A DNA stretch of 64,000 nt from contig JACPLN010000008.1 in NCBI GenBank assembly GCA_016186485.1, forward strand, positions 8,673 through 72,672, given 5' to 3'. A program made the translations under genes and the position numbers. This stretch comes from Candidatus Nealsonbacteria bacterium (GTDB lineage Bacteria > Patescibacteriota > Minisyncoccia > Minisyncoccales > UBA6532). Positions 1,198 through 53,685 of this stretch are shown here, in pieces. Under the pieces are notes generated by a model. That model was not told the DNA's origin. It worked only from the letters and a program-made list of their open reading frames with translations, and made no database searches. Position 1 is the stretch's first letter. Each line of letters begins with the position of its first letter.

Positions 1198-3303
1198 TTA
1201 CTTTCTTTTTCCTTCAATTACCTCCTGAGCTATATTATGAGGCACCTCTTCATATTTGTCAAACTCCATTGTAAACGTTCCTCTGCCTTCTGTCATTGAC
1301 CTTAAAGCGGTTGCATAACCGAACATTTCAGACAAAGGAACCTTTGCCGAAATAACCTTGAGATTAATTCTGTCTGAAGTTTCTTCAATTCTCCCTCTTC
1401 TGGCATTTAAATCTCCGATTGCGTCTCCAAAGAAATCTGCGGGGACAATGGTTTCTACTTTCATTACGGGTTCCAACAAAACCGGTTTTGCCTTTTTTGC
1501 AGCCGCCTGAAAGGCCTGGGAACCCGCAATCTTAAAAGCTATTTCTGAAGAATCAACTTCGTGGTAAGAACCGTCATAAAGAATCACCTCTATATCAACC
1601 ATTGGATATCCGGCTACAACTCCTTTATCCTTTGCTTCTTTTACGCCTTTTTCAACCGCAGGAATAAATTCTTTCGGTATTACCCCTCCCTTAATTTCGT
1701 CAATAAATTCAAAACCTTTTCCTTTCTCTTTCGGCTTCACTCGAATCCAAACATGGCCATATTGCCCCCTGCCGCCAGACTGCTTTATGTATTTGCCTTC
1801 GGCTTCCGATTCGCCCAAAATAGTTTCCTTGTAGGCAACTTGAGGCCTTCCCACATTAGCTTCAACCTTGAATTCTCTCCTTAATCTGTCGGTAATAATT
1901 TCCAAATGCAATTCTCCCATTCCGGAAATGATTGTTTCAGCCGTTTCAAGGTCGCTTCTTATTCTAAACGTAGGGTCTTCCTCGGCTAGTTTTTTAAGGG
2001 CCATGCCCATCTTCTCCTGATCAGCCTTTGTCTTTGGCTCTATTCTAATAGAAATAACAGGTTCTGGAAAAATAATCTTTTCCAATAAAATAGGGTTGTT
2101 TTCGTCGCAAAGCGTATGGCCGGTAGAAGTATTCTTTAGGCCTACGGTTGCCGCGATGTCGCCGGAAAAAAGCTCGTCAACGTCTTCTCTGGAATTGGCG
2201 TGCATTCTTAAAAGCCTGCTGATTCTTTCTTTTTCTCCCGAAGTTGAATTTAAAAGATAGGAACCCTTTTTTAAGCTTCCGGAATAAACCCTGAAGAAAG
2301 TCAGGGTGCCAACGTAGGGATCTGAAGCAACCTTAAAAGCAAGGGCCGCGAAAGGCGCGTCGTCGCTTGCCTCCCTTGTTATTGTTTCCCCGGTTTTCGG
2401 ATCTATGCCCTGGATAGAAGGCAAATCAATCGGGCTTGGAAGATAATAAACTACCCCATCCAGCATTAGCTGTACCCCCTTGTTCTTCAGGGCGGAACCG
2501 GCAAAAACGGGAATTAGCCTGTAATTGATGGTTGCCTTCCTTAAAACCATCCTCAGTTCGTCAACGGTTGCTTCCTGTCCTGCAAGGTATTTTTCCATCA
2601 ATACTTCGTCTTCTGCAACGATTTTTTCAACCAAATTCTTGCGCCACTCCTTTGCCTTTTCTGCTAGATCCCGAGGTATCTCTGATTCTTTTATAACCTG
2701 GCCCAGATCTCCCTCAAAATTCAAAGCCTTCATTGTCAAAAGATCAATTACGCCTGAAAAATTGCTTTCGCTTCCAATTGGCAGCTGCAAAGCCAAGGCA
2801 TTCGGAGAAAGCTTTTTCAATATGGAATCAAGGCTTTTTTCAAAAGAAGCTCCGGTTCTGTCTAATTTGTTTATAAAACAGATCCTTGGAACTTTAAATT
2901 TGTCGGCTTGACGCCAAACAGTTTCTGATTGCGGCTCAACTCCGGCAACTCCGTCAAAAACAACCACTGCTCCGTCTAAAACTCTTAATGATCTTTGGAC
3001 TTCAGCGGTAAAATCAATATGGCCCGGGGTATCAATAATGTTTATCCTATACTCATTATCTTGTTTTTTTTCTTTGCCGAAAGGAGTCCAAAAACAGGTA
3101 GTGGCAGCGGCAGTAATTGTAATGCCTCTTTCTCTTTCCTGCTCCATCCAATCCATAATTGTAGTTCCCTCGTGGACCTCGCCTATTTTATGCGAAATTC
3201 CCGTGTAAAACAAAATTCGCTCGCTTACCGTTGTCTTGCCGGCGTCAATGTGAGCGATAATTCCAATGTCTCTGACTCTTTCTATCGGATACGATCTTGG
3301 CAT
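1198..3303 (-). CDS. fusA: Elongation factor G
   Basis: [17 protein letters not shown] and NKLDR GTPase motifs with full-length EF-G-like sequence. Start moved to the ATG at 3301-3303 ([12 protein letters not shown]...), 7 nt after the rpsG stop. Confidence 0.95.
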
Positions 3304-3310
3304 ATTTTTA

Positions 3311-3781
3311 TCACCAGGCGAAATGGGCAAAAGCCCTATTGGCTTCCGCCATTCTGTGGGTGTCTTCTTTTTTCTTTACTGCCGATCCCGTGTTATTAGC
3401 CGCGTCAATCAGCTCCTGGGCTAATTTTTCTCTCATCGGCTTGCCTTTCTTTGATTTGGCGGCATTAATTATCCAGCGCATCGCCAAACTGTTTTTTCTT
3501 TCCGGTATTACAGGGGTTGGAACCTGGTATGTCGCCCCCCCTATTCTCCTTGGCCTAACTTCCAGCAATGGAGAAGTATTTCTCATCGCAGCTTCAAAAA
3601 TTTCTACCGGCTCTTTTTTGGTTTTTTCTTTTACAATGTTAAAGGCTCCGTAGACAATTTTCCTGGCTATGTTTTTTTTGCCCCGCCTCATCAAGGAATT
3701 GATAAGTTTTGAAACTCCGGTATTTTTATAAATTGGATCGGGGGCTAATTCGCGTTTTTCTTTTTTCTTGCGCCTTGCCAT
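3311..3781 (-). CDS. rpsG: 30S ribosomal protein S7
   Basis: 156 aa, [20 protein letters not shown]...[10 protein letters not shown], typical S7 ends. Sits in str operon context. Confidence 0.95.
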
Positions 3782-3783
3782 AG

Positions 3784-4194
3784 TTACTTTGCCTTTTTAG
3801 CGCCGTACTTTGACCTTTCTTGTTTTCTTCCTTCAACTCCTGCCGTATCCAGCATGCCCCTAACAACATGGTATCTTACCCCGGGCAAATCCTTTACTCT
3901 TCCGCCCCTGACCAAAACTATTGAGTGCTCCTGCAGATTGTGGCCCTCTCCCGGTATGTAAGCCGTAATTTCCATGCCATTGGTCAATCTGACCCTGGCT
4001 ACCTTTCTCAAGGCGGAATTGGGCTTTTTGGGGGTGGTGGTAAAAACTTTTAAGCATACTCCTCTTTTGAAAGGAGAAAAATAATCTTTAGGCCTGTCTT
4101 TTTTCGTATTAAAACCAAAAGTCAGGGCCTTAGCCTTAGGCTTCTTTTTTCCGGTCTTTCTTCCTTTTTTGATTAATTGATGGATAGTTGGCAT
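3784..4194 (-). CDS. rpsL: 30S ribosomal protein S12
   Basis: [13 protein letters not shown]...[19 protein letters not shown]...GVRYHVVRG, a canonical S12 sequence. Confidence 0.96.
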
Positions 4195-4195
4195 A

Positions 4196-4339
4196 CCCCG
4201 TAGTAGAAATTCGACAACGAGTTATAATTTCGCAAAAATTCATTGTCGTTTTTTATCGTAAATTAGATATATTTAGATAATGCCCCGGAGTCTATTTCTA
4301 TCATAACTCGTCAAGAAATGTCGAATTTTCACTACGGGG
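4196..4339. mobile_element. Hairpin MITE-like element, copy 1 (144 bp)
   Basis: Left end CCCCGTAGTAGAAATTCGACA, right end TGTCGAATTTTCACTACGGGG (inverted). A second inner inverted pair is ACGAGTTAT/ATAACTCGT. Flanked by the direct repeat CATA (4192-4195 and 4340-4343). Confidence 0.6.
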
Positions 4340-4372
4340 CATAAAAAACGAAAGCGCAGAGCGCTCATCATT

Positions 4373-4401
4373 AATTTAACAAATCGTAAAACCGGTGTCA
4401 A
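4373..4401 (-). promoter_or_regulatory. Putative sigma70-type promoter of the str operon (TTGACA-17-TAAATT)
   Basis: Minus-strand reading gives TTGACA (4396-4401), a 17-nt spacer, then TAAATT (4373-4378). It lies between MITE copies 1 and 2. Confidence 0.45.
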
Positions 4402-4402
4402 A

Positions 4403-4464
4403 CCCCGATAGTAGATTTTGGACTTACTCCGTAAAATGAAATTTGTCCAAAATTCACTACGGGG
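4403..4464. mobile_element. Hairpin MITE-like element, copy 2 (62 bp)
   Basis: CCCCGATAGTAGATTTTGGAC...GTCCAAAATTCACTACGGGG. Flanked by the direct repeat TCAAA (4398-4402 and 4465-4469). Confidence 0.6.
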
Positions 4465-4492
4465 TCAAACAAAAAAGGCATACAAAGATGCC

Positions 4493-5317
4493 TTATAGTA
4501 TTATGAACGGGATGGCAATGAGCGACACTACCAAAAATATGGTTACTAAGCTTGCAACGCCGGTTATTATATCTTTGGTTCTATATACGTTTACTATGTC
4601 CGACTTACCGTTATGTATCACATGATCGAGAACAAGTACCAGAATTAAGGCAAATGTATTGAATATTCTTCCTCCGTCTAGAGAACCAATAGGCAAAGCG
4701 TTAAATATGGCTAAGCTAAGATTGACAAGAATAATCACGAAAAACAGAGAAAATACTGCTTCATTTGCTCCCAGGAACGCCCGGTTTAAAAGAAGGCCGG
4801 GTATTGCGAGCAGGGCAACAACAAAGTTACTTACAATGCCCGCTGACGACACTTTAATTTGATCCTTAAATCCTTTCTCAATGAGCGAAAGTTCATCAAT
4901 CTCGCAGAAAGCTCCGATTGGAAATCCTAAAAACAACATTAGTCCCATTGATCGTACTCCGACCCCAACTGACCTTGCCGCCACGCCATGCGACAACTCA
5001 TGAACAGCTATGGCTATTATTATGGCTATCCAGCCAGAAAAAATCGGTAGGAAAGGATTCAGCCCGGGAATCAGCAACGATGACTGGACTCCCGCCTTTT
5101 TGACTTGCTCTAAAAGAACTGAATCAGAGAAAAAGCCGAAGATCTGGTAAATAATCAAGTACAGCCCTCCTATCATCAAAAGAGGGACAACTAACACCCA
5201 AAGCCAGTTTAAGGACCTAATAACCTTTATCCTACTCAGCCTTTCTATGAATCCCAACCCCCTTTTGGTTCTAATAAAAATCAGGGGAATCCTTAACTCA
5301 ACAGTCTTTTCTGTCAA
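4493..5317 (-). CDS. Site-2 protease family (M50) membrane metalloprotease
   Basis: Multi-TM protein with an HELSH zinc motif (AIAVHELSHGVAARS) and a distal LDGG motif. Confidence 0.8.
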   Translation of the reverse strand: MTEKTVELRIPLIFIRTKRGLGFIERLSRIKVIRSLNWLWVLVVPLLMIGGLYLIIYQIFGFFSDSVLLEQVKKAGVQSSLLIPGLNPFLPIFSGWIAIIIAIAVHELSHGVAARSVGVGVRSMGLMLFLGFPIGAFCEIDELSLIEKGFKDQIKVSSAGIVSNFVVALLAIPGLLLNRAFLGANEAVFSLFFVIILVNLSLAIFNALPIGSLDGGRIFNTFALILVLVLDHVIHNGKSDIVNVYRTKDIITGVASLVTIFLVVSLIAIPFIIL

Positions 5318-10584: not shown

Positions 10585-11919
10585 TTGAACCTTCAAAACA
10601 ATGTAGTAATCGTCACCCATCAATGGGTTGACGGCGATGGACTAATAGCCATCGCGAAACTGAAGCGTTTCGGGGAAAACAAGATACCGGGTATATCTAG
10701 CGCAGACATTCACTTTCACGACGGAGACACCGATCGGCTGCTGGAAATCACAAAATACTATCCTACGATAGTCTTTGTGGATAAAACGCCAGACGGAGAA
10801 TTCGAAGCAGTAAAGAAAATGACTACGGTAAGGATTGAGGCCTTTGACCACCATCCTCACGATAAGTTTCCTGGCAAGACAGCAACAAGCATAGTTTCAG
10901 AGTATCTCGGACTAAAAGATAATTTAAGCCAGAAATTAGACCGCTGGGCAAGCCGGTTTGACTTCCAAACTGGCGGAGACCCAATGGATCTAAGGTTTCT
11001 GGTAAAGGAAATGCATCATGCGTACACCGAGAAAGAAGTGACTGACTGGTTCATGGAACTAATGGATGCCTGCCACGAAACCGAAGACACCAAAGCAGAT
11101 GCAAAGACCGGACGAGAATTCTTCACTAAGGCCCTGGAAGAGCATCTCAATAAAGACCAAGACATGCCAGCAAAAGACATCTTCCAAAAATGGCTAGAAA
11201 GATCTAGAGGAGGGAAACCAATTGAAGATGACATGCATATAATCAACGCCGCAGGAAAGGTACTTGAAGTATTCGGCGAAAACAAAACTAGCGTATGGCT
11301 GGCTAAAGTATTCAACGCTGTAAATGACGGCCAAAGAGTATTCCAGAAAGCAAAAGAGGACTTGAAAAAATCAGAAATATCGGTATTCGGAAACATAGTA
11401 CTCATCAGCGCTGTAACGGAAAACCCGAGATTCAACCGATTCGTTAGAAGCCAGCAAGGAAATAATATGCTGCCTCTGTCAGCGCAAGAAAAACTTGGCA
11501 AAGGACACAATCCTATTGTCTTGCAAATCTGGCCGGAAAGAAAAGGATTCCAGATTTTCGGCAACGGATTAAAACTAAGGGATGTAGTTGGGGCTCTCAG
11601 GGCAGAACTTCTGAAAATACGAGGCAAACAAATACCGACTCACTGGACAGTGCTTAAAGACGGAGGAACAATCAGTAACACCGATCCTCTATACTACCAA
11701 ACAGGGGACTTCGAAATGCTGATGTGGGGCTCGCTAACCAGAAGCAAGGTGGCGCCTGTTGATATGCCGGAAGAAACAATAAAGAAGGCGGTAACTGTGG
11801 CTCTCGATCAGACATACCTCCACAAAGACTGCAAAGATTGCACTAACAAGGGTTGCCCATTCTACGAATGGCAGCTATACCGCTGCACACAACGCCGAAG
11901 AAACCCAAACGCTACCTAA
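10585..11919 (+). CDS. Divergent DHH-family phosphoesterase-like protein with a C-terminal Cys cluster
   Basis: DHH motifs in order: THQWVDGDG (motif I), IVFVDKTPD (II), AFDHHPH (III), GKTATSIVSEYL. The C-terminus is CKDCTNKGCPFYEWQLYRC. TTG start. Confidence 0.55.
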   Translation: MNLQNNVVIVTHQWVDGDGLIAIAKLKRFGENKIPGISSADIHFHDGDTDRLLEITKYYPTIVFVDKTPDGEFEAVKKMTTVRIEAFDHHPHDKFPGKTATSIVSEYLGLKDNLSQKLDRWASRFDFQTGGDPMDLRFLVKEMHHAYTEKEVTDWFMELMDACHETEDTKADAKTGREFFTKALEEHLNKDQDMPAKDIFQKWLERSRGGKPIEDDMHIINAAGKVLEVFGENKTSVWLAKVFNAVNDGQRVFQKAKEDLKKSEISVFGNIVLISAVTENPRFNRFVRSQQGNNMLPLSAQEKLGKGHNPIVLQIWPERKGFQIFGNGLKLRDVVGALRAELLKIRGKQIPTHWTVLKDGGTISNTDPLYYQTGDFEMLMWGSLTRSKVAPVDMPEETIKKAVTVALDQTYLHKDCKDCTNKGCPFYEWQLYRCTQRRRNPNAT

Positions 11920-12017: not shown

Positions 12018-13259
12018 ATGACACAAAAGAAAAAAGGAGAAGTAAGGAAAACCTCAGGAATGGGAGGAGGAATAGACCTAACGAGACTCATTGAAAAGAC
12101 GGTAAAACCCGCCGAAAAACTGGAGTCAGCTGCCTCAGTCCAGACCACAGCACAACAAACAGCACAGAAACAACCCGAGCAAACGGCCATTGACGTAATG
12201 GAAACGATCGGAGTCACCAAAAAGCTGGTGACCTCACTTAAAGAGAAACGTTTCAACCCAGAGAAAGTCAAAGAGTACTACAGCCACCTGCAAGAGAAGA
12301 CAGAAGAAGACGCGGAAGCAATAGGTAAGCTCAACCAAGTGAAAGCGTTCCTTGAAAGAAGAAAGACGATGATGATCAGCGGCCCAGAGGACGAAAAGAG
12401 ATACTGGCTGCCTTCAATGGAAAAACAACACCTTGATGAGGTGATAAATCTGATCAACGAACTGAGAAAACTCAATACGATGGCTGCTAAGCTTGCGGAT
12501 GAGAAAGCCAAGTATATCAATGAGCAAAGAAGAGAAGTCTGGAGAATCCAGCACGAAGCTGAAGTAACAGCAATCAAACGCGGAAAGGAAGGAGAACAAA
12601 GGATTTCCCTGCACGAAGGATGTGAAGAGAAAGAAGGATTCATACCCCTAAAAGTCAGATACACAGACAGGGTAACGGGAAGAGACTTAGAAGCCTGGAT
12701 CAAAATCCAGGTTCTGGAGGGAAATGCCAGAATAGTTGAGGCGGAAAGAATAGCTCGCTGGATGGTCAATTACGGAACAGACAGAAACGGACAGCCAAAC
12801 TGGGTAAGACTAGACCCAGACACCAACTTCGGTTTCCGGGATGGAGAATCAGGATGGCCAAGAGCAATATCAGGCATATTGCCTCCTGCGCTTACCTCCC
12901 TCTACGAATGGGAGGAAACCAGGAAGATGGAGAAAGAGGAAGCGAAGAAGGTCTTACAAGAGGAAAAGGACAAAACAACTATAACGGTCTGCCAACTCCT
13001 GGAAGGAGAAAAAGGATACGTTGGCGGGCTCTCCAAAGGAGACTGGCAAAACATGAAATCCGGCAAAGTTGGATACTTGGCCGTCAGCGTAGAAGGAACC
13101 GGAGACCGCAAAGTGGTAGTGCGGTTTGTGCAAACACAACTTCACCAGCACTTTGTTCAAATGCTAGACAAAGAACAAAGCCTTGCCGACCTAGATCGCC
13201 AGCTGAAAGCCTTTCTCAACTGGCACGCAAACGGGGAGGAATCTAAAACTCCCGCATAA
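12018..13259 (+). CDS. Hypothetical protein, 413 aa (coiled-coil N-half, globular C-half)
   Basis: Long ORF with its own promoter and a downstream hairpin. No recognisable family. Visibly GC-richer than its neighbours. Confidence 0.55.
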   Translation: MTQKKKGEVRKTSGMGGGIDLTRLIEKTVKPAEKLESAASVQTTAQQTAQKQPEQTAIDVMETIGVTKKLVTSLKEKRFNPEKVKEYYSHLQEKTEEDAEAIGKLNQVKAFLERRKTMMISGPEDEKRYWLPSMEKQHLDEVINLINELRKLNTMAAKLADEKAKYINEQRREVWRIQHEAEVTAIKRGKEGEQRISLHEGCEEKEGFIPLKVRYTDRVTGRDLEAWIKIQVLEGNARIVEAERIARWMVNYGTDRNGQPNWVRLDPDTNFGFRDGESGWPRAISGILPPALTSLYEWEETRKMEKEEAKKVLQEEKDKTTITVCQLLEGEKGYVGGLSKGDWQNMKSGKVGYLAVSVEGTGDRKVVVRFVQTQLHQHFVQMLDKEQSLADLDRQLKAFLNWHANGEESKTPA

Positions 13260-16581: not shown

Positions 16582-17277
16582 ATGAGATCAAAGTGGTACG
16601 AATTAAGGGGTACTGCGATCGGGCTGCGCAAAAGGGGGCTTTCAATGAACACAATTGAAAAGCGGTATGGAATAGCTCGCTCCACCCTCAGTGGTTGGTT
16701 TAGAAACGTAAAACTTACGCCAGCACAAAAGAAAAAATTATCACAGAACTCAAACGCTGCGTTAATTTCGGCACGTAAAAGGGCGGTTTTGTGGCATAAC
16801 GCACAAAAACAACGAAGGCTCAGAGAGGCAAAACTGCAAGCACTCCATACATTAAGAAAAATCAATCCTAAAAACAGGCATATTCTTGAACTCACGTTGG
16901 CTATCCTCTATCTTGGTGAAGGAAATAAAGCAAGTGTCGAAACAAGTATTGGTAACTCCGATCCACTAATATTAAAGTTTTTCTTATCTTGTTTGAGAAA
17001 AATATATAATTTTAATGTCGATAAGATAAGGTGCGAATTACATTTGAGAGCTGATCAAGATCCTGAAAGAATAAAACGTTTCTGGGCTAAGAAACTTAAG
17101 CTATCGTTAAGTAATTTTAAACAAGTCACTATTGATAAAAGAACGCTCGGATCAAAAACTTTCGCCTATTATAAAGGGGTCTGCGTACTCAGGTGCGCTA
17201 ATGTAGCAATCCAAAGAAAGTTATTATATCTTGCACGTTATTTTTGTGAACAAATAATAAAATCGTCGGGCTCATAG
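16582..17277 (+). CDS. LAGLIDADG-type homing endonuclease-like protein with an N-terminal HTH
   Basis: A single motif, LTLAILYLGEGNK, matches the GLYLGDG variant of LAGLIDADG. The N-terminal GLSMNTIEKRYGIARSTLSGW looks like an HTH. The stop codon TAG lies inside tRNA-Val. Confidence 0.55.
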   Translation: MRSKWYELRGTAIGLRKRGLSMNTIEKRYGIARSTLSGWFRNVKLTPAQKKKLSQNSNAALISARKRAVLWHNAQKQRRLREAKLQALHTLRKINPKNRHILELTLAILYLGEGNKASVETSIGNSDPLILKFFLSCLRKIYNFNVDKIRCELHLRADQDPERIKRFWAKKLKLSLSNFKQVTIDKRTLGSKTFAYYKGVCVLRCANVAIQRKLLYLARYFCEQIIKSSGS

Positions 17278-20976: not shown

Positions 20977-21026
20977 ATAGCATATTATAAAGTATTTAAA
21001 AATTGTTGCCAGATTTGTTTTCCACA

Positions 21027-21086
21027 CCCCGTAGTAGAAATTAGACAATCTGCGATTATGAAATAAGTCTAATTTCTACTACGGGG
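21027..21086. mobile_element. Hairpin MITE-like element, copy 3 (60 bp)
   Basis: CCCCGTAGTAGAAATTAGAC...GTCTAATTTCTACTACGGGG. Flanked by the direct repeat CACA (21023-21026 and 21087-21090). Confidence 0.6.
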
Positions 21087-21138
21087 CACAGCTTCTTGAA
21101 TAACGAAAATTAAGATGCTAATATCAAAAGTAGATTTA

Positions 21139-26392: not shown

Positions 26393-27597
26393 AAAAGGAT
26401 TTTCCGGTTTTTAAAAACCACCCCAAACTGGTTTACCTTGATTCTGCGGCTACTTCTTTAAAGCCAAGGGGTGTAATTGTGAAATTAGTGGAATATTACG
26501 AGAAATACCCGGCTAACGTTTTCAGGGGAATCTACAAAATTTCAGAAAAGGCGACCGAAGAGCTTGAAGAAACAAGAAAAATCGTTGCTGATTTTATAGG
26601 AGCTAAAACGCCGAAAGAAGTAATTTTTACCCGCAACACCACCGAATCAATCAACCTGGTCAGTTACGCATTGGGAGAAAAAATATTAAGAAAGGGCGAT
26701 GAAGTCGCTCTTTCAATAGCGGAACACCACTCTAACTTTGTGCCCTGGCAGCAGCTAGCTAAGAAAAACGGAGCTGTTTTTAAAATAATAGATGTAAACG
26801 AAGACGGAAAACTGATTATCAAAAAAGGTTTCTTTTCAAGAAAAACAAAAATTCTGGCCCTAACTTATGTTTCAAATGTTTTGGGAACGATAAATCCAAT
26901 AAAGGAAATAATAAAGCTGGCGAAATCAGAAAACCCTGGGATAATAACCGTTATTGACGCCGCCCAAGCCATCCCCCATCTTAAAATAGACGTTAAAAAA
27001 CTGGGAGCCGACTTCCTGGCTTTTTCTTCCCATAAAATGCTGGGCCCGACAGGCCTGGGAATTTTGTGGGGAAAAGAAAAAATCTTGCAGGAGATGAAAC
27101 CATTCAATTTCGGCGGAGAAATGGTAGAAGAGGTTTCAATCAAAAAAACTACGTTTAAAGAGCCCCCTCTCAAGTTTGAAGCCGGCACGCCGGATATTGC
27201 GGGAATAATCGCTTTGAAAGAAGCAATAAGATACCTTTCAAAAATTGGTTTCAAGAATATAAGAAGACACGAAATTGAAATTACAAGATACGCCATGGAA
27301 CGGATGCTCAAAGAATTCGGAGAAAGAATAAAGATCTTCGGGCCAAAAGACCCGCGAGATCGGGGCGGAATAATATCTTTTGCGCTTTCGGGCCTGCATC
27401 CTCATGACGTTGCCCAAATTTTAGACGAAAAAAACATATGCGTCAGAGCGGGGCACCACTGCGCCATTCCCCTTCATAAAAGATTAGGGGTTCCTGCCAC
27501 AACCAGGGCCAGCTTTTACATTTACAACGACAAGAAAGATATAGATAAATTAATTTTAGGGCTGAAGAAAGCATGGATTCTATTTACAAAGAAATAA
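26371..27597 (+). CDS. sufS: Cysteine desulfurase SufS
   Basis: YLDSAATS, the PLP-Lys region FSSHKMLGPTG, and the active-site RAGHHCA. Confidence 0.9.
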   Translation: MFSVNKIKKDFPVFKNHPKLVYLDSAATSLKPRGVIVKLVEYYEKYPANVFRGIYKISEKATEELEETRKIVADFIGAKTPKEVIFTRNTTESINLVSYALGEKILRKGDEVALSIAEHHSNFVPWQQLAKKNGAVFKIIDVNEDGKLIIKKGFFSRKTKILALTYVSNVLGTINPIKEIIKLAKSENPGIITVIDAAQAIPHLKIDVKKLGADFLAFSSHKMLGPTGLGILWGKEKILQEMKPFNFGGEMVEEVSIKKTTFKEPPLKFEAGTPDIAGIIALKEAIRYLSKIGFKNIRRHEIEITRYAMERMLKEFGERIKIFGPKDPRDRGGIISFALSGLHPHDVAQILDEKNICVRAGHHCAIPLHKRLGVPATTRASFYIYNDKKDIDKLILGLKKAWILFTKK

Positions 27598-27941
27598 TTC
27601 TTGAATACTATAAAAACCCGAAGAATTATGGCAGAATAAAAAAACCGACCAGTAGCGCCTTTCTCGCAAACCCCCTTTGCGGAGACAAAATAAGAATTGA
27701 TGTTATTTTGAAAAAAGGAAAGGTAAGAGAAATTAAGTTTTCCGGGGATGGCTGCGCGATTTCTCAGGCTTCGGCTTCCTTGCTCACGGAATACAGCAAG
27801 CAAAAAAAAGCGACTATTCTTAAGAAAATCGGCCCCAAAAAGGTTTTGCAAATGCTTGGGATAAAAATCGGCCCCGCAAGGCTAAAATGCGCTCTTTTAC
27901 CCTTGGAGGTTTTTAAAAAAGCAATTAGCAAAACCCCGTAG
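27573..27941 (+). CDS. sufU: SufU/IscU-like Fe-S scaffold or sulfur acceptor
   Basis: NPLCGDKIRIDV...FSGDGCAISQASASLL...RLKCALLP, a three-Cys SufU pattern. The last two codons and stop lie inside MITE copy 4. Confidence 0.85.
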   Translation: MDSIYKEIILEYYKNPKNYGRIKKPTSSAFLANPLCGDKIRIDVILKKGKVREIKFSGDGCAISQASASLLTEYSKQKKATILKKIGPKKVLQMLGIKIGPARLKCALLPLEVFKKAISKTP

Positions 27942-28011
27942 TGAATTTTTGACTTATTTCACAATATTAGTTTTTCTTTTAAGAAAAACTTGTCGAAAAT
28001 CTACTACGGGG
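27934..28011. mobile_element. Hairpin MITE-like element, copy 4 (78 bp)
   Basis: CCCCGTAGTGAATTTTTGAC...GTCGAAAATCTACTACGGGG. Flanked by AAA(A) on the left and AAA(G) on the right. Confidence 0.55.
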
Positions 28012-28044
28012 AAAGGTCGTAAAAAAATAAATAAATTTTTATTC

Positions 28045-34016: not shown

Positions 34017-34883
34017 CTATGCTCCGCATCCGCTGTTTGATTTGCGCTCTAACGGAGTTATTTGGTTTAATATTTGGCGATAGCCCCAGGCGCTTGAAAA
34101 ATTATATCCCAATATCTCTTTCGGATTCGCTTTCTCAAAGGAAATACTTTTTGTTTCAAGATATTGTGCAATGGCAAGATATGTGTCCGGGAACCAATAT
34201 GAATTCACCCGGAGGGCGACGCGATACATTTCCTCCTCCGAAACACCCTGCGAGGCCATCAATTCAAGAAGACCAAGCATAGCCATACCGTGATTGCAGT
34301 CGGGAAAATAAGTCGGGTTATTGCAGCAGGGGCGATAGATATTCTTTGAAACCCGCTCAACCAGCGCCTGCTGTTCTTTAGTCAAAACGATGAAGGAATG
34401 AGAAGAATAATGGTCCATGGCATCGCCCTTTGCCAAAGTCCATCCGCCGGTTGAGGCGAAATTTCCCGGACCGCCGTACCCTGCGTCCATCATCGGCCCT
34501 TTCTCTAAAATATCATTTTTATTACCTAATCCCAAGGCCCATAATATGTTCAAAATTATCCCGGAGTTTTCAGGGGTAATTTCAAGGTTATCCTTACTGC
34601 CTTGAGAAAGCAAACCCTGGTAGGCAGGCCCGAGTTTCTCCGGGTCAATTACTCCTGCGTCAGCCATTTTCACCCCAATATCCCCCAAAGAAACCGGCAA
34701 AACCACTCCGTCCTCCGGCAAAACAAAATTTTCTAGATTTAAAGAATTGTCTTTAGCGCCAAAAATCCAGCTAAAAACAAGAAAAGTAAAAAATCCAAAT
34801 ATAGCCGCCCATTGCCAATAATTAACTTTTAATTTTTCCCGCCTGCCGGCCAGGCAAAGTTTCTTAATTTTATTCAGCAACAT
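34017..34883 (-). CDS. Membrane-anchored extracytoplasmic protein with a CCNNPTYFPDCNHG motif
   Basis: N-terminal TM, then a conserved-looking Cys/His cluster. Sits in a metal/thiol cluster context. Confidence 0.5.
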   Translation of the reverse strand: MLLNKIKKLCLAGRREKLKVNYWQWAAIFGFFTFLVFSWIFGAKDNSLNLENFVLPEDGVVLPVSLGDIGVKMADAGVIDPEKLGPAYQGLLSQGSKDNLEITPENSGIILNILWALGLGNKNDILEKGPMMDAGYGGPGNFASTGGWTLAKGDAMDHYSSHSFIVLTKEQQALVERVSKNIYRPCCNNPTYFPDCNHGMAMLGLLELMASQGVSEEEMYRVALRVNSYWFPDTYLAIAQYLETKSISFEKANPKEILGYNFSSAWGYRQILNQITPLERKSNSGCGA

Positions 34884-37020: not shown

Positions 37021-37707
37021 CTATTTCAATTCAACAAAATCGCTGCTCCAAGAACAATATTGGCAAAAAGGACTGCTTTTTGGAATTGGGCCCAAAAGCG
37101 TTTTTATGCCGTCTTGAAACAATTTTAAGGCCATCTCGTGGCTGGTTTCCATCTTTTTTACACCAACCTGAAAATTGATTATTCCCTTATCTGCTACGTT
37201 ATCGGGTTTATAATAAACCAGGTAAGCAATGCCTTTTGTCTTGTATCCCCCCTGCTCTAAGAGAAAGTTGTAAATATTAAGCTGGTGCTGATAATACTTC
37301 TTGGCGTTTTCTTCAAAAGCCGCGGATCCCGTCGTTTTAAAGTCAACCGGTATATAGTATTCGCCGTCAAAAAGGCAATCATCCAAAGCCCCAACCAAAA
37401 CAAAATCGCTCTGTTCCTTGTCTTGGTATGCCAAAACCGGCCTCATGGCGTCGCGCCATCGATCTATCAATCCCTGGTCTGGCATCAGCTTGCCCTCAAC
37501 CTGCCCCACCAATTCCGGGGGCAGCTCACCCTTGGCTCTGAACTTATCAAAATAAGGCTTTAAAATCCTGTCAAAGTTGTTCTGCAAAGCAAAACTCTGC
37601 TCGGGCTTCTTTACTCCCTTTGCCTTATAGGCCCAAAAACATTTTGGGCATTCCAAAAATAAGTTTAAGCTTGATGCCGATAATCTAATTTGTTGGCTGT
37701 TTCTCAT
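37021..37707 (-). CDS. PD-(D/E)XK nuclease family protein (Cas4/RecB-like, Cys-cluster type)
   Basis: N-terminal LFLECPKCFW and C-terminal CQYCSW cysteines, with a central D...D/ExK-like GALDDC...VDFKT. Confidence 0.7.
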   Translation of the reverse strand: MRNSQQIRLSASSLNLFLECPKCFWAYKAKGVKKPEQSFALQNNFDRILKPYFDKFRAKGELPPELVGQVEGKLMPDQGLIDRWRDAMRPVLAYQDKEQSDFVLVGALDDCLFDGEYYIPVDFKTTGSAAFEENAKKYYQHQLNIYNFLLEQGGYKTKGIAYLVYYKPDNVADKGIINFQVGVKKMETSHEMALKLFQDGIKTLLGPIPKSSPFCQYCSWSSDFVELK

Positions 37708-38796: not shown

Positions 38797-39771
38797 TTAG
38801 TTTGTAAAACTTTTTGGCGCCAGGCAATTGCGCCAACTCTTGTCTTCGCGGATGCGGATAAACCATTTATTCCTAAGTTTCCCGCTGGAGAATCTTATTT
38901 CAAATCCAACCTGCAAAACCGCAGGCCCTGTCCCCCCTTCCAGAATCTCTTTTATTTTTCGGCGCGTTTCGCCTGAAAAACTGCCTAGCCTTCCGCAATC
39001 AAACTCTTTTTTGGTTACAGGATCTATCTGAAGCAAAACAACTTCTTTAAGCTTGGCCGGATCTTTATCTTGCGGAATCCATTCCCTGACAATAAAATCA
39101 TCTTCAAATACCGGTTTCCATTTATAGCATCCTTCCGGACGTTTCGGAGATTTGCCGTCCAAACGGATTGATGCGGTAAAATCTTTGTCGTAGAGAACCA
39201 ATCCTTCCCAGCCGCTGTTTCTAACCATGTTTTTGGCTTCGTTAAAGGCCGCGTCAACAACCGTCAGAGGCATGACGTATCCGGGTTTGCCTTTAGCAAG
39301 AACTCTTTGTATATTTTCTAAACGTGAAGAGTAGGGCTGGCTAAGAGAGCATCGTCCTTCCCAAAAAGCTATATCAAAAACCATGAATTTGACTAAGCCA
39401 TTTTGCCGCTGCATCTCAAGCGATTTTTGGGGTTTGGAGTTAAAAACAGATCCGACTCCCAAAAAGTTATCGTTGCCGTCTAAATCTACGATGCCCTCGC
39501 CTATCAGCATGCTGTTTTCCGGTATTTCCAGATTATCTAATTCCTTTTTAATGTGAGGCAAGCGCTCGGTTACCTCTCTTGTGCTGTCGGTATATACCTT
39601 CCACCCTTTACCAGATTTCACGGCAATCAATTTCCAGCCATCCCGTTTGCGGGTAATAATAAGTTTTCTTTTTTTCTCAAGCTCAAAGATTGTTGACTCA
39701 TCGTACGCTTCCCTCTGAAGCGGTTTATAAAAAACAAAGCCTTCGGGTAAAGGATCTAGCGAAAACTCCAA
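38797..39771 (-). CDS. ATP-dependent DNA ligase (compact form, TTG start)
   Basis: Motif I KRDGWK, motif III MVFDIAFWEG, motif IV WEGLVLYD, motif V CYKWKP. Confidence 0.72.
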   Translation of the reverse strand: MEFSLDPLPEGFVFYKPLQREAYDESTIFELEKKRKLIITRKRDGWKLIAVKSGKGWKVYTDSTREVTERLPHIKKELDNLEIPENSMLIGEGIVDLDGNDNFLGVGSVFNSKPQKSLEMQRQNGLVKFMVFDIAFWEGRCSLSQPYSSRLENIQRVLAKGKPGYVMPLTVVDAAFNEAKNMVRNSGWEGLVLYDKDFTASIRLDGKSPKRPEGCYKWKPVFEDDFIVREWIPQDKDPAKLKEVVLLQIDPVTKKEFDCGRLGSFSGETRRKIKEILEGGTGPAVLQVGFEIRFSSGKLRNKWFIRIREDKSWRNCLAPKSFTN

Positions 39772-52008: not shown

Positions 52009-52068
52009 TAAGTCAAAATTCCGCCAAAATAGCGGAATTTTTAAGCTAAAGTTAGACTAAAATGGTTG

Positions 52069-52140
52069 CTCCGCGGGCAGGATTCGAACCTGCAACCTAG
52101 TGCTTAACAGGCACCCGCGCTACCATTGCGCCACCGCGGA
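52069..52140 (-). tRNA. tRNA-Asn (anticodon GUU)
   Basis: Acceptor TCCGCGG/CCGCGGA, D arm GCGC-AATGGTA-GCGC, anticodon stem GGTGC/GCACT with loop CTGTTAA, T arm GCAGG-TTCGAAT-CCTGC. Confidence 0.9.
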
Positions 52141-52144
52141 ATAA

Positions 52145-52390
52145 CTAATTTTTGCCTAAAATTCTTTTAATAAATCTTCTTCCCGCCGCAGATTTAAAAT
52201 ATTTTTCTCTTTTTCTTGCCTCAAGAATATTCAGGAATTCTTCTTTATATATTAACATCCATGGTTTGTATTTTTTAGAAAATTCTGTCTTTCCCGATTT
52301 GTGCTCTTTCATTCTTCTTGCTATATCAGTAGTACTCCCTACGTAAGTTTTTGGATATTCTATACTTTTTAGAATATAAACATAATTCAT
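52145..52390 (-). CDS. Small GIY-YIG nuclease family protein (81 aa)
   Basis: MNYVYILKS...KTYVGSTTDIARRMKEHKSG...YKEEF...EARKREKYFK carries the GIY/YIG, R and E motifs. The start is trimmed to 52390 because the upstream 20 codons translate the tRNA fragment and hairpin. The stop lies 4 nt from the tRNA-Asn 5' end. Confidence 0.75.
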   Translation of the reverse strand: MNYVYILKSIEYPKTYVGSTTDIARRMKEHKSGKTEFSKKYKPWMLIYKEEFLNILEARKREKYFKSAAGRRFIKRILGKN

Positions 52391-52396
52391 AAAAGA

Positions 52397-52464
52397 CCCC
52401 GCGCTACCCGCCTCGACTCGCTGAAGCGAGCCTTCGGCGAGGCGGGCCATTGCGCCACCGCGGA
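52397..52464 (-). pseudogene. Duplicated tRNA-Asn 5' fragment (nt 1-27) interrupted in the D loop by a 40-nt GC-rich palindrome
   Basis: 52447-52466 is identical to 52123-52142 (CCATTGCGCCACCGCGGAAT). 52398-52408 is identical to 52114-52124 (CCCGCGCTACC). The insert at 52407-52446 is CCCGCCTCG...CGAGGCGGG. Confidence 0.75.
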
Positions 52465-52497
52465 ATGTATCTTATTTTACAAATTTTTAATGAAAAA

Positions 52498-53685
52498 TCA
52501 ATACCCCTTGAGCTTCTTTAGGCCGCGGTGATCCCTGATTCTGTCTAGGGCCTTGGCTTCAATTTGGCGGATTCTTTCTCTGGTCACCCCGAAAACTTGG
52601 CCCACCTCTTCCAGGGTATGGGTAATTCCGTCTTCTAGGCCAAAACGCATTGAAAGAATCTTCTGCTCTTTTGGAGTTAAGTCAAAGAGAATTTCCTTTA
52701 GTCTCCCCCTCAAAAGAGATCTTGCCGCATCAAGAGATGGAGCGGTAATTTTTTCATCCGCTATAAACTCGGCTAAAACGCTGTCTTCTTTATCCTCGCC
52801 AACCGGGGTTTCCAAAGAAACGGTTTCCTGGGAAATCTGCATAATGTGCCTAACCTTTTCTACGTCAAGCTCCATTTCTGACGCTATTTCTTCCGGAAGG
52901 GGTTCCCTGCCTAAATCCTGCAGAAGTCTTCTCCGAACCTGAGTGTATTTTGAAATTGTTTCTACCATGTGCACGGGAATCCTAATCGTTCTTGCCTGAT
53001 CTGCCAGGGCTCTGGTTATAGCTTGCCTTATCCACCAAGTGGCATAAGTAGAAAACTTATATCCCCTCCTCCAATCAAACTTTTCCACCGCCCTGAATAA
53101 TCCCAGGTTTCCTTCCTGTATTAAATCCAACAAGGTCAAATTGGGAGACCTGCCGACGTATTTCTTAGCGATAGAAACAACAAGCCTTAGGTTTGCCTGA
53201 GCAAGCTTCTTTTTCGCTTCTTCGTCGCCTTTCTCTATTTTTTTTGCAAGCTCTTTTTCTTGATCTGCGGTCAAAAATGCGGTTTTGCCGATTTCTTTCA
53301 AATACATCTGAACTGGATCCGGATGCGCTTCTGCCGGGACTTCCAAATAACGCGATGTTTCTCCAGGCTTTTTTTCAGGAGTCCCCAGAAGCTCTACCGA
53401 TTCTTTTACTTCTATCCCCCGCTTTTCCAATTCCTGATAAAGCGAGTCAAGCCCCCTGACATCGTTTTCAATATTTGGGAAAAAATAAAGAATTTCTGAA
53501 TAGGTGACAAACCCGCGAGATTCCCCTTTTTTAATCAAAGACTCTATATCGTCCAAAGAGAAAACTGGGCCCTTGCCTCGCCTGGGCCTTATCTTCTTTG
53601 CTCTTTTGGAAAACCTCCTTTTTCTAATGGGATTTGTCTTCCCTTTTTTTCTAATTTTTAGCTTCTTTTTCTTCTTTTTTGGCAT
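52498..53685 (-). CDS. rpoD: RNA polymerase primary sigma factor
   Basis: Region 2 ([13 protein letters not shown]), region 3, and region 4 ([24 protein letters not shown]). K/R-rich N-terminal tail. Confidence 0.95.

Follow-up and report, generated by a model that had tools for sequence, protein, structure and literature searches.

Mobile, gene-less hairpin elements at gene boundaries in Patescibacteria and their GIY-YIG-encoding relatives

Results

The window analysed here, a 64-kb stretch of DNA from a Candidatus Nealsonbacteria genome, carries four short hairpins: copy 1 at 4196-4339 (144 bp), copy 2 at 4403-4464 (62 bp), copy 3 at 21027-21086 (60 bp) and copy 4 at 27934-28011 (78 bp). 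They had been proposed by a sequence-only reading as a family of non-autonomous, MITE-like elements, and all four were re-found at these coordinates with the termini claimed for them, namely 20-nt arms of the form CCCCGTAGT-RR-A-WW-TT-N-GAC. An arm-core scan of the 64-kb window gave no fifth copy, and every exact CCCCGTAGT match in the window lies inside one of the four elements. When one mismatch or fewer was allowed, CCCCGTAGT was found 15 times, compared with 6.3 ± 2.3 times in shuffled sequence, and none of 100 shuffles reached 15. The inner motif GACTTATTTCAyAAT is, as described, shared by copy 4 and the reverse complement of copy 3. All four copies are situated at gene boundaries, which was also part of the original claim: the rpsL ATG, a -35 hexamer, the gap between an ORF and tRNA-Phe, and the stop codon of a NifU-like gene.

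Copy 1 belongs to the long class and adjoins the start codon of rpsL (ribosomal protein S12, PF00164; 3784-4194, minus strand) on its upstream side. It is bracketed by an exact CATA repeat (4192-4195 on the left, 4340-4343 on the right). On the minus strand the left repeat reads TATG and holds the rpsL ATG (4194-4192), and the right repeat contains a second ATG (4342-4340). This duplicated ATG opens a 13-codon leader ORF (MPRSENSTFLDEL followed by a stop; 4301-4342, minus strand), which traverses the 5′ half of the copy 1 stem. We infer that translation of the leader ORF may unmask the rpsL AUG. The 20-nt arms of copy 1 are prolonged by a further stem of about 12 bp, and its RNA fold has an energy of -48.5 kcal/mol (z -7.9). 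Since its left arm is of the AGA type and its right arm of the GAA type, copy 1 is heterotypic. Copy 2 has an extra A in one arm (CCCCGATAGT) and an exact TCAAA repeat (4398-4402 and 4465-4469). The left repeat, TTTGA on the minus strand, overlaps the -35 hexamer of a predicted sigma-70-like promoter, TTGACA-17-TAAATT (4373-4401, minus strand). This predicted promoter matches the consensus at 10 of 12 positions and has a TG preceding the -10 hexamer. It is presumably the promoter of the rpsL-rpsG-fusA operon, and its -35 hexamer begins 1 nt away from copy 2. Three public contigs terminate within copy 2. An exact-protein look-up of S12 and Ni-SOD returned the same strain only (SRR12113420/22/24), with identical elements.

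Copy 3 forms a perfect 20-bp stem and is one of the rare homotypic cases (AGA/AGA). It has an exact CACA repeat (21023-21026 and 21087-21090), and its neighbours are a divergent 798-aa ORF (ATG at 20976, minus strand) and tRNA-Phe (21139, plus strand). Copy 4 has the interior typical of the family, in which a short hairpin precedes one of 9 bp. The last 8 nt of a NifU/SufU-like ORF (27573-27941, plus strand), including its stop codon, lie inside copy 4, the left arm of which gives this ORF tandem stops, TAG TGA, after a C-terminus ending in AISKTP. The public gene call at this locus is likewise a 122-aa NifU_N ORF. Flanking direct repeats had been claimed for every copy. They are exact for copies 1-3, but copy 4 has only a 3-bp AAA (27931-27933 and 28012-28014), its longer flanks being AAAA and AAAG.

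Folding of the four window copies gave z-scores of -5.6 to -9.1 on both strands. The co-variation seen between arms in the window was also found among 100 elements from many genomes, in which positions 13, 14 and 17 are 95-99% Watson-Crick complementary, compared with 36-56% when arms were paired across different elements. The outer arm core is NNNN-GTAGT-RR-A, and the inner positions are variable yet co-vary. Stem positions 1-20 are 94-100% paired, except for position 4 (69%) and positions 10-11, where a G.T + A.C tandem mismatch is conserved and Watson-Crick pairs occur in only 1-2% of elements. From position 21 on there is no arm pairing. The extreme termini differ between elements (CCCC, CCCG, TCCC, CCCA, CCTA, CAAG) yet remain complementary. 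Taken together, these results show that the stem is conserved as a structure. Heterotypic arms were found in 79 of 91 MITEs and in nearly all of the GIY-YIG elements described below. Neither folding energy nor G.U pairs showed a strand bias, so selection at the RNA level on one strand is unsupported. Arm polarity did not track local GC skew (odds ratio 1.9, p = 0.16) and a mechanism tied to the replication fork is therefore unsupported as well. A signal with respect to gene-strand bias (p = 0.04) is probably driven by the start-codon subfamily.

Outside the window, an arm search of genomes gave at least 112 loci, nearly all of them in Patescibacteria MAGs, so the further copies expected of a mobile family do exist. 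The arm pattern was present at only 2 loci on viral contigs, and there is thus no sign of a phage origin. Hairpins in other genomes fall into size classes of 60-97 nt and 125-150 nt, and their density is about 1 per 15 kb (4 in the 64 kb of the window; 12 in 182 kb of unrelated loci). Arms that seem to stand alone can mostly be put down to variants, to truncation or, in non-CPR genomes, to chance matches. Among 124 elements in the matches listed, 95 are flanked by a direct repeat of at least 4 bp, compared with about 6.7 expected when flanks were shuffled between elements; 82 of these repeats are exactly 4 bp long, 11 are 5 bp and 2 are 6 bp. The CANA-like target preference originally suggested is replaced by Y-N-N-R, also given as Y-W-N-R (TTGA, CTTG, TATG, TTTA).

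Orthologous empty sites were also found, each with a single copy of the repeat. One pair consists of loci L109 and L082 (repeat TTGA), and another of the window at about 60.2 kb and locus L019 (repeat CTAA). Elements are inserted within other elements, and short ones are nested with duplications of their own. One element (locus L042) lies within an LSU (23S) rRNA match, where it takes the place of a short native hairpin present in L077. In 23S rRNA intervening sequences (IVS), an extended stem-loop stands in for the tip of a native helix and is cut out by RNase III; L042, unlike the four window copies, is a candidate for this class. The results show that the window hairpins are genuine, mobile members, without genes of their own, of a small transposon family spread across Patescibacteria (CPR bacteria). 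As in other MITEs, the window copies are small (60-144 bp) and non-coding apart from the 13-codon leader ORF, and the family has terminal inverted repeats, a target duplication of fixed length, and dispersed multiple copies with presence/absence differences. The terminal inverted repeats, duplications, dispersed copies and empty sites all support the non-autonomous, MITE-like reading.

An alternative is vertical inheritance: the hairpins would then be regulatory or structural features of the RNA or DNA, such as a terminator, attenuator, RNase III site or operator, and no insertion would have taken place. They are very stable, lie at gene boundaries with promoters and start codons adjoining, and have co-varying stems, all of which would suit such a role. 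However, the target-site duplications, orthologous empty sites and nested insertions argue against inheritance in place, as does the occurrence of the same element beside unrelated genes, within a 23S rRNA gene and around an ORF. The stems also lack a U-tract and match no Rfam family, and we regard this explanation as highly improbable. As to particular candidates, an intrinsic terminator was rejected, since a terminator scan called none of the four window copies and their stems are not followed by a U-tract. A known structured RNA family was rejected in the same manner: at gathering thresholds, Rfam found 11 tRNAs and nothing else in the whole window. For region 4150-4500, with the cut-off relaxed to E <= 10, all matches were weak (E >= 0.1), fell far short of gathering scores and were mostly to miRNA and snoRNA models.

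The duplications also bear on a second alternative, in which the hairpins are REP/REPIN-type elements moved by a RAYT (HUH tyrosine transposase). GTAG is invariant near the 5′ end, at arm positions 5-8, and REPINs, too, are hairpins of about this size in which imperfections are conserved. In contrast, a 4-bp duplication is the rule here, and movement of the REP/RAYT and IS200/IS605 type leaves no target-site duplication. No HUH/RAYT gene was found in the window or flanked by arms in the loci among the matches listed. We therefore attach very little weight to a RAYT-based origin.

The gene-boundary sites seen in the window recur elsewhere. Of 102 MITEs, 23 adjoin TTGAC (1.8 in shifted controls), 17 lie at a start codon (1.7 in shifted controls) and 17 supply a stop codon (2.8 in shifted controls). 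About half of the MITEs are accounted for by the upstream edge of a -35 hexamer, a start codon or the last codons of a gene.

The sequence-only reading had suggested a search for a longer copy carrying a transposase. A form with the same termini and an ORF does exist, but it encodes a GIY-YIG nuclease and no recognisable transposase. At L105:794-1109 the same arms enclose an 88-aa ORF, and in an exact-protein look-up the three other GIY-YIG contexts found all have arms. At least 65 of the best 80 metagenome loci of this GIY-YIG family have both arm cores at a fixed geometry, with a core-to-core distance of 295-314 nt at nearly all arm-bounded loci among these 80. The full element is about 310 bp long and consists of the 5′ arm, 5-6 nt, and the 88-aa GIY-YIG ORF, the end of which runs into the 3′ arm. 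Among 60 non-redundant complete elements, 36 have an exact 4-bp duplication (43 with 1 nt of slack at the boundary). A host ATG lies no more than 10 nt from the 3′ arm in 39 of the 60, with the GIY-YIG stop codon 14-23 nt from the host ATG or overlapping it as ATGA, and in 27 of the 60 a leader ORF ends 2-20 nt before the GIY-YIG ATG. The adjacent host genes are many and different. MITE-size hairpins and GIY-YIG elements co-occur on the same contigs. Comparison of the two forms indicates that the window hairpins are ORF-less relatives of this approximately 310-bp unit.

No full-length GIY-YIG element was found in the 64-kb window. The window does contain a GIY-YIG paralogue ORF (52145-52450, minus strand; PF01541) that shares about 47% identity with the arm-bounded family but has no CCCCGTAGT arms and lies in a tRNA-Asn-linked cassette. 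The earlier statement that the window holds no transposase stands, in that Pfam and NCBIfam scans found none among its approximately 60 ORFs (ten of which had no family match), but it has to be qualified by the presence of this related gene.

The partner ORF encodes a stand-alone GIY-YIG nuclease of 88 aa that is UPF0213/Slx1-like. All family matches carry a precomputed PF01541 assignment, and the hallmarks of the GIY-YIG superfamily were all found: its alpha/beta fold, the GIY and YIG motifs and the conserved Arg, Glu and Asn residues. Residues invariant in family alignments include, among many, Y5, Y16, G18, R26, E29, H30, N31 and E62; the catalytic residues of GIY-YIG enzymes are, in our reading, among them. 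The fold is predicted with a pLDDT of 92; among solved structures, UPF0213 BH0048 and the Slx1 nuclease domain come closest (TM 0.6-0.65), followed by the I-TevI catalytic domain, and Foldseek and HMM searches match 1zg2, Slx1 and I-TevI. The protein consists of the catalytic domain only, without a DNA-binding domain. Protein similarity is higher among elements of the same terminus type. A classic GIY-YIG homing endonuclease gene was rejected as an identity for the ORF, given the missing DNA-binding domain, the many host sites and the presence of arms and duplications.

These observations have to be weighed against the possibility that the hairpins are ordinary MITEs moved by a DDE transposase of the IS1380/piggyBac or IS5-like type encoded elsewhere, with the GIY-YIG gene as a selfish passenger of the homing endonuclease type which entered a single lineage of the element. 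A fixed 4-bp duplication at a near-palindromic Y-N-N-R target is a typical DDE product, the CCC...GGG termini resemble the IS1380/piggyBac type, and to our knowledge GIY-YIG enzymes do not carry out DNA transposition. Nevertheless, no ORF other than GIY-YIG was found between CCCNGTAGT arms, either in about 170 pairs from the at least 112 genome loci or in the best 80 metagenome loci. Long arm pairs (450-6000 bp) around a transposase were absent from the 8-kb loci among the matches listed, and no transposase family is represented among the window ORFs. Within the arm-bounded family (best 80 loci) the GIY-YIG ORF is almost never outside the arms and keeps its fixed geometry, which would be unexpected for an occasional passenger. 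The extreme termini, moreover, vary while staying complementary, and this fits recognition of a structure better than it fits the sequence-specific end of a transposase. We consider movement by a DDE transposase unlikely, though the most probable of the alternatives.

The hairpins could also be the remnants, left in situ, of GIY-YIG elements that lost their ORF, as happens in the life cycle of homing endonuclease genes, in which case the short forms would be immobile. The two forms do have common arms and overlapping site preferences, notably for start codons, and one GIY-YIG ORF (L192) shares an 18-19-nt palindrome with the MITE inner hairpin. In contrast, the two-hairpin interior recurs at many unrelated loci in many genomes, indicating that the short form was itself copied. 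Short elements are nested in short elements with duplications of their own, the -35 sites used by 23 of 102 hairpins were used once among GIY-YIG elements (best 80 loci), and hairpins outnumber ORF-bearing copies by about 170:1 in the genome loci among the matches listed. Such decay in place is, in our judgement, improbable. A derivation of MITE interiors by deletion within the GIY-YIG ORF was rejected, as the L192 palindrome is the single match and there is no blastx signal.

Discussion

Based upon these observations, we think it probable, with moderate confidence, that the hairpins are non-autonomous, ORF-less transposons that are mobilised in trans by the GIY-YIG nuclease, and that the copies which persist are those that do the least harm. 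A full-length copy at another place in the genome would supply the nuclease, for which the folded form of the arms, a hairpin or cruciform, and not their linear sequence would be the recognition signal. The enzyme would cut at the base of the stem and open the target with a 4-nt stagger, and repair would then be completed by host polymerase and ligase. That the 88-aa protein is itself the mobilising enzyme, recognising an arm hairpin marked by the G.T/A.C mismatch and cutting the stem base with a 4-nt stagger, is a more tentative proposal, to which we give slightly under an even chance. We know of no strand-transfer activity among GIY-YIG enzymes, which are hydrolytic nucleases, and known GIY-YIG cuts leave 1-2-nt 3′ overhangs as opposed to a 4-nt stagger.

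Sites of little harm may be of several kinds. An insertion just upstream of the -35 TTGACA, as for copy 2, could be tolerated because the duplication regenerates the hexamer. At a start codon, as in copy 1 and rpsL, the duplicated ATG would open a leader ORF through the 5′ arm, and this ORF would unmask, or couple to, translation of the host gene. Elements that lie in the final codons of a gene, such as copy 4, provide in-frame TAG-TAG or TAG-TGA stops from their arm. Helices of rRNA would be a further kind. The GIY-YIG element may likewise rely on host start codons, with translational coupling serving its own expression and sparing the host gene.

Patescibacteria have tiny, streamlined genomes from which few classical insertion sequences are known. 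At about one hairpin per 15 kb, these elements therefore form a substantial and undescribed part of the Patescibacteria mobilome. With sites on promoters, start and stop codons and rRNA helices, they alter annotation (the NifU-like C-terminus and the rpsL leader are examples), and they probably affect the expression of core genes. They are also likely to cause assembly breaks. If the nuclease is the transposase, it would represent a new mechanistic class beside the DDE, DEDD, HUH, serine and tyrosine enzymes, and a minimal structure-guided nuclease with possible use as a tool. If this is true, an element of about 310 bp with its own swarm of MITEs would fall far below the usual size of insertion sequences (roughly 0.7-2.5 kb).

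Full-text literature searches found no published description of the hairpin/GIY-YIG family, in keeping with the original statement that its termini were not recognised from any described family. The closest paper, as far as its passages on rRNA insertions go, describes GIY-YIG ORFs in non-intron insertions in CPR rRNA genes, along with numerous uncharacterised insertions that are shorter than 200 bp and contain no ORF (Tsurumaki et al. 2024, J Bacteriol, PMC11270868). The hairpin in the L042 23S rRNA is probably one of these, and our proposal would, if true, account for both kinds of insertion. The GIY-YIG passages of PMC11270868 contain nothing on arms, duplications, a distribution outside rRNA or a link between hairpins and GIY-YIG ORFs, and 'hairpin' and 'palindrom' are absent from the text of that paper covered by a term search.

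The hairpins resemble the IS1380/piggyBac and IS5 types in their 4-bp duplication, CC(C)...(G)GG termini and short, degenerate, palindromic target. IS1380/piggyBac elements have CC... termini and a 4-5-bp duplication, and IS5-like elements a 4-bp YTAR duplication. The hairpins differ from both in that no DDE transposase was found between arms or in the window, and in that their termini vary and are still complementary. A derivation from IS1380 or IS5 was rejected, as no arm-bounded DDE gene was found in the at least 112 genome loci, the best 80 metagenome loci or the approximately 60 window ORFs. Integron attC sites are imperfect hairpins of 57-141 nt that are recognised in folded, single-stranded form, with unpaired bases defining their function. 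The present elements are imperfect hairpins of a comparable kind with conserved unpaired bases, but they have target-site duplications and are without an integrase, a cassette array or R/L boxes.

Rickettsia palindromic elements (RPE) are inserted into coding regions without breaking the frame, so that the protein gains a peptide segment; we know of no enzyme for them. Like RPE, the hairpins are palindromic mini-elements tolerated in genes and structural RNAs (the NifU-like stop and the 23S rRNA helix). In contrast to RPE, they sit at the extreme ends of ORFs, which they terminate, and they share no sequence similarity with RPE. The Correia elements of Neisseria (CREE/nemis) are non-coding, occur in many copies of 60-150 bp and carry inverted repeats of about 20-26 bp from which a long hairpin forms. 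They make a short TA duplication, occupy gene-boundary and promoter sites, have stems of RNase III length and include a short form without a transposase. The hairpins agree with Correia elements in being short, non-coding and multi-copy, in having inverted repeats, a short duplication, gene-boundary and promoter sites and no transposase, and in possessing stems long enough to be RNase III substrates. They differ in their terminal sequence, in a 4-bp Y-N-N-R duplication in place of TA, in their Patescibacteria hosts, in a conserved tandem mismatch and co-varying positions, and in having an ORF-bearing relative that encodes a GIY-YIG nuclease and not a DDE enzyme. That relative shares its PF01541 fold and selfish behaviour with free-standing GIY-YIG genes (T4 Seg, I-TevI) and with UPF0213/YhbQ/Slx1. 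Unlike homing GIY-YIG genes, however, it encodes a protein of only 88 aa, is bounded by inverted repeats with 4-bp duplications, occupies many sites in place of a single cognate homing site and is accompanied by abundant ORF-less derivatives.

Results

Re-reading of the window sequence confirmed the positions of four hairpins that a sequence-only reading had called MITE-like (copies 1 to 4, at 4196-4339, 4403-4464, 21027-21086 and 27934-28011). As claimed, all four begin with CCCCG(A)TAGT and end with the reverse complement. Their arms are 20 nt long, and on either strand their folding is far more stable than that of shuffled sequence (z -5.6 to -9.1). With up to one mismatch, CCCCGTAGT occurs 15 times in the window versus 6.3 +/- 2.3 times in shuffles; a window scan for inverted pairs of the core GTAGTRRA found no fifth copy. 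Of the reported flanking repeats, CATA, TCAAA and CACA match exactly, whereas copy 4 has just AAA.

All data are metagenome assemblies, examined as loci or contigs. The same reading had proposed looking for copies elsewhere, and one scan of 185,579 species genomes found at least 112 loci beyond the window that match CCCCGTAGTRRAWWTTNGAC. Nearly all matches listed are MAGs labelled Patescibacteria/CPR (Nealsonbacteria, Wolfebacteria, Buchananbacteria, Moranbacteria, Wildermuthbacteria, Portnoybacteria, Liptonbacteria and Paceibacterota among them), and many carry the label 'Saccharibacteria'. Viral contigs gave only two matches to the arm pattern, and Rfam contains no family that fits. Among the matches listed we catalogued 128 paired elements, most of 60-97 nt with a second class of 125-150 nt. 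In 124 elements the flanks were long enough to judge, and in 95 of these a direct repeat of at least 4 bp abuts the termini (exactly 4 bp in 82, 5 bp in 11 and 6 bp in 2), compared with ~6.7 expected when left and right flanks are paired across different elements, which upholds the duplications in more copies. The suggested CANA-like preference is replaced by Y-W-N-R: once elements are oriented by the type of their arms, 71/74 have T or C at position 1 and 73/74 have A or G at position 4. The most frequent duplications are TTGA/TCAA, TATG/CATA, CTTG/CAAG and TTTA/TAAA.

Empty sites were reconstructed in sequence and then matched to real sequences elsewhere. A lone TTGA in locus L109 corresponds to TTG(G)-element-TTGA in L082, and a lone CTAA at the tsaD-leuS junction of the window (~60.2 kb) to CTAA-element-CTAA in L019. 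Several elements sit in the inner hairpin of other elements, and the reconstructed host element aligns with intact copies across the junction. The hairpins are real, and they are mobile. More copies, duplications and empty sites, on which the first reading had staked its interpretation, support insertion. The duplications and empty sites contradict two other explanations, conserved regulatory hairpins and REP/RAYT elements, and we regard each as very improbable.

Insertion sites fall into classes. Among 102 evaluable short elements, 23 abut a TTGAC motif, 17 abut the ATG of a long ORF and 17 provide a long ORF with its stop codon, versus 1.8, 1.7 and 2.8, respectively, in a control with positions shifted by 40-250 nt. 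The window copies exemplify each protein-gene class. Another element lies inside the 23S rRNA gene of locus L042 (2770-2844; Rfam LSU match 2151-3026), without clear duplication, and replaces a short native hairpin of the relative L077 (~3400-3440); its probable role is that of an expansion segment or intervening sequence.

On the minus strand, 1 nt separates the end of copy 2 from the -35 hexamer in a promoter-like TTGACA-17-TAAATT. This site follows closely on a terminator-like hairpin that belongs to the M50 peptidase gene before it, and the copy's duplication TTTGA regenerates the hexamer. For the same strain there are three independent public assemblies (L115, L116 and L117, position 1), and all end inside copy 2; such hairpin repeats therefore fragment short-read assemblies of these genomes. 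Copy 1 lies between the promoter-like site and rpsL (S12; then S7 and EF-G). Because its duplication is TATG, the rpsL ATG is the downstream copy, and the upstream ATG opens a 13-codon ORF (MPRSENSTFLDEL, then a stop) running through the 5' half of the stem. Between promoter-like site and duplicated ATG there is a terminator-like hairpin, GAGCGCTCTGCGCTT, followed by a T-run (4352-4366, minus strand). A Shine-Dalgarno sequence is absent upstream of both ATGs, and the rpsL AUG is 1 nt from the -48 kcal/mol stem of copy 1. Translating the leader ORF would open the 5' arm and leave the AUG free; alternatively, the stem may be cut by RNase III. Copy 3 lies between a divergent 798-aa ORF and tRNA-Phe, 14 nt from a weaker promoter-like site. 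Copy 4 supplies the TAG-TGA stops of a NifU/SufU-like ORF (ending AISKTP), with a Ni-superoxide dismutase gene 33 nt downstream.

Across the 100 elements analyzed, the stem shows structural conservation and a fixed mismatch. Positions 1-3, 5-9, 12, 15-16 and 18-20 are near-invariant and paired in 94-100%. Positions 13 and 14 (A/T) and 17 (any base) vary and are Watson-Crick paired in 95-99%, compared with just 36-56% when arms are taken from different elements, which bears out the arm co-variation noticed earlier. Pairing ends sharply at position 21. At positions 10-11, Watson-Crick pairs occur in only 1-2% of elements: GTAGTGAA in one arm faces GTAGTAGA in the other, giving a tandem G.T plus A.C mismatch. 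The arms are heterotypic in 79/91 short elements, and copy 3 is one of the rare homotypic cases. Subfamilies differ in their outermost four bases (CCCC, CCCG, TCCC, CCCT, CCCA, CCTA, CAAG), which are still complementary. Tandem pairs of 70-nt hairpins at L174:947-1098 and L178:1035-1185 have termini CAAG...CTTG and CAGA...TCTG, keep core and mismatch, and all have TCCA on their flanks; the extreme ends can therefore vary provided that they pair. One reading frame of both arm types holds tandem stops (TAG-TAG or TAG-TGA). The interiors are built of modules: as a rule, a 7-12-bp hairpin is next to a short one whose loop is UNCG- or GNRA-like, and the sequence of both changes from genome to genome with pairing kept. 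Interior orientation has no tie to arm polarity, and folding energy has no strand bias in short elements.

A longer copy with the same termini, carrying a transposase, had been envisaged. Such a copy was found at L105:794-1109, the one such pair in the genome loci, with duplication AGAA, but its 88-aa ORF has GIY-YIG motifs, and its role as a transposase is a tentative reading. A protein search with this ORF returned 961 clusters at E <= 1e-10; the matches listed have 72-90% identity, PF01541 in all, and few named sources (Paceibacterota, Nomurabacteria or Patescibacteria). An exact-protein look-up found the same arms in 3/3 further genomic contexts (L124-L127 and L118/L120, around 1440-1860). 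In two, the unit follows a serine hydroxymethyltransferase gene whose stop codon is the TAG of an arm, and the C-terminal ~12 codons recur as a diverged duplicate (…KMDKVLRGKK, then stop) just downstream of the element. In the third, the unit has RNase Y on one side and HU on the other, its duplication is TACG, and the arm's CCCGGTAG recreates the original C-terminal Ala-Arg-stop.

A metagenome scan with the family alignment found at least 588 relatives. Both arm cores (strict pattern) occur in 65 of the best 80 of these loci; by eye, most of the remainder carry variant arms or are truncated where the contig stops. The layout is fixed: a 5' arm, 5-6 nt and an ATG, with the ORF or its stop codon ending within or just before the 3' arm and 295-314 nt from core to core in nearly all units. 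Among 60 non-redundant complete units, 36 have an exact 4-bp duplication (43 with 1 nt of boundary slack), the duplications being TATG, TGGA, TGAA, ATGA and TACG. The ATG of a long host ORF lies within 10 nt of the 3' arm core in 39/60, and the GIY-YIG stop codon either overlaps the host ATG as ATGA or is 14-23 nt away from it. In 27/60, a short leader ORF begins at the duplicated upstream ATG and stops 2-20 nt before the GIY-YIG ATG; in 3/60 the leader is fused in frame.

Hairpins and GIY-YIG unit are linked by this shared architecture, an unexpected association. Short hairpins share contigs with units, often 13-28 nt apart. Protein identity is 70.1% where the terminus type is shared versus 67.4% otherwise (permutation p < 0.001), and codons 4-10 of one GIY-YIG ORF contain an 18-19-nt palindrome that is the inner hairpin of many short elements. 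No full-length unit lies within the 64-kb window, and we conclude that its hairpins are ORF-less members of the family. That full units instead decay in situ to an immobile short form is improbable: interiors are common to different loci, elements nest in elements, and one site class lies upstream of -35 boxes.

Family alignments contain many invariant residues, including Y5, Y16, G18, R26, E29, H30, N31 and E62, which we read as comprising the putative GIY-YIG catalytic ones. The AlphaFold model, a confident one (pLDDT 92), is a bare catalytic domain without a DNA-binding domain. Its nearest solved relatives are, in order, UPF0213 BH0048, the Slx1 nuclease domain (TM 0.6-0.65, 26-30% identity) and the I-TevI catalytic domain. 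Slx1 is a structure-specific endonuclease that acts on branched DNA.

Discussion

Based on these observations, we tentatively propose that the GIY-YIG nuclease is the transposase of the family, a reading we hold as quite possible. The main alternative is that GIY-YIG is a passenger and that a DDE transposase encoded elsewhere (IS1380/piggyBac-like or IS5-like) moves the elements. This fits the fixed 4-bp duplication; however, at the loci covered no such gene lies between the arms, which enclose the GIY-YIG ORF family near-obligately, and the termini are variable, so we consider it unlikely.

Beyond the anatomy, we infer each step for the nuclease. It would work in trans on arms seen as a hairpin or cruciform, and recognition of structure would explain why termini and inner positions co-vary rather than being fixed. 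It would cut the stem base, the target would be opened by a 4-nt stagger, and host repair would finish insertion. The full unit would use host start codons: the host ribosome-binding site would drive the leader ORF or fusion, coupling would give nuclease expression, and a second coupling step would restore host gene translation.

Several other window features deserve mention. Two minus-strand ORFs ~1 kb apart (37021-37707 and 38797-39771) encode a PD-(D/E)XK nuclease and an ATP-dependent DNA ligase; both may bear on end-joining repair in the organism, and nothing ties them to the elements. A second kind of small GIY-YIG cassette occupies 52068-52500 (minus strand). Its 101-aa ORF (52145-52450) is directly upstream of tRNA-Asn (52068-52140), and before the ORF comes an incomplete copy of the 5' end of the tRNA (ttccgcggtggcgcaatgg...tagcgcgggg), which a 40-nt GC-rich hairpin (CCCGCCTCG...CGAGGCGGG) interrupts. 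The same layout occurs by other tRNAs in two unrelated MAGs (L081:2260-2640, L012:6170-6560), and the cassette looks like a mobile, tRNA-gene-targeting one. At L013:3690-3960 (minus strand), a GIY-YIG paralogue lies between a different inverted repeat, CCCCGTTAGAAAC / GTTTCTAACGGG, which suggests that GIY-YIG with inverted repeats may be a wider architecture. An ORF with a phage-type GP88 domain (PF17338; 55529-56335, minus strand) lies directly downstream of the DnaG primase gene. At the thresholds applied, four sizeable ORFs, at 10585-11919 (444 aa), 12018-13259 (413 aa), 16582-17277 (231 aa) and 34017-34883 (288 aa), matched no Pfam or NCBIfam family.

If the nuclease is the transposase, the family would be a new class of transposable element. 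We found no published description of it in the openly searchable full-text literature (subscription-only sources excluded). The nearest paper, a survey of CPR rRNA-gene insertions (PMC11270868), reports in passages that GIY-YIG ORFs occur in non-intron insertions, that many insertions are short and ORF-less, and that GIY-YIG is apparently not spread by homing; these passages do not mention arms, duplications or a family. The short elements have every structural feature of MITEs. On defining tests, we reject identity as DDE-derived MITEs (no DDE gene lies between the arms at the loci covered), REPINs (duplications are present), homing endonuclease genes, terminators or members of an Rfam family. 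They share no sequence with Correia elements or Rickettsia palindromic elements, but resemble the former as promoter-proximal hairpins and the latter in being tolerated in genes and RNAs.
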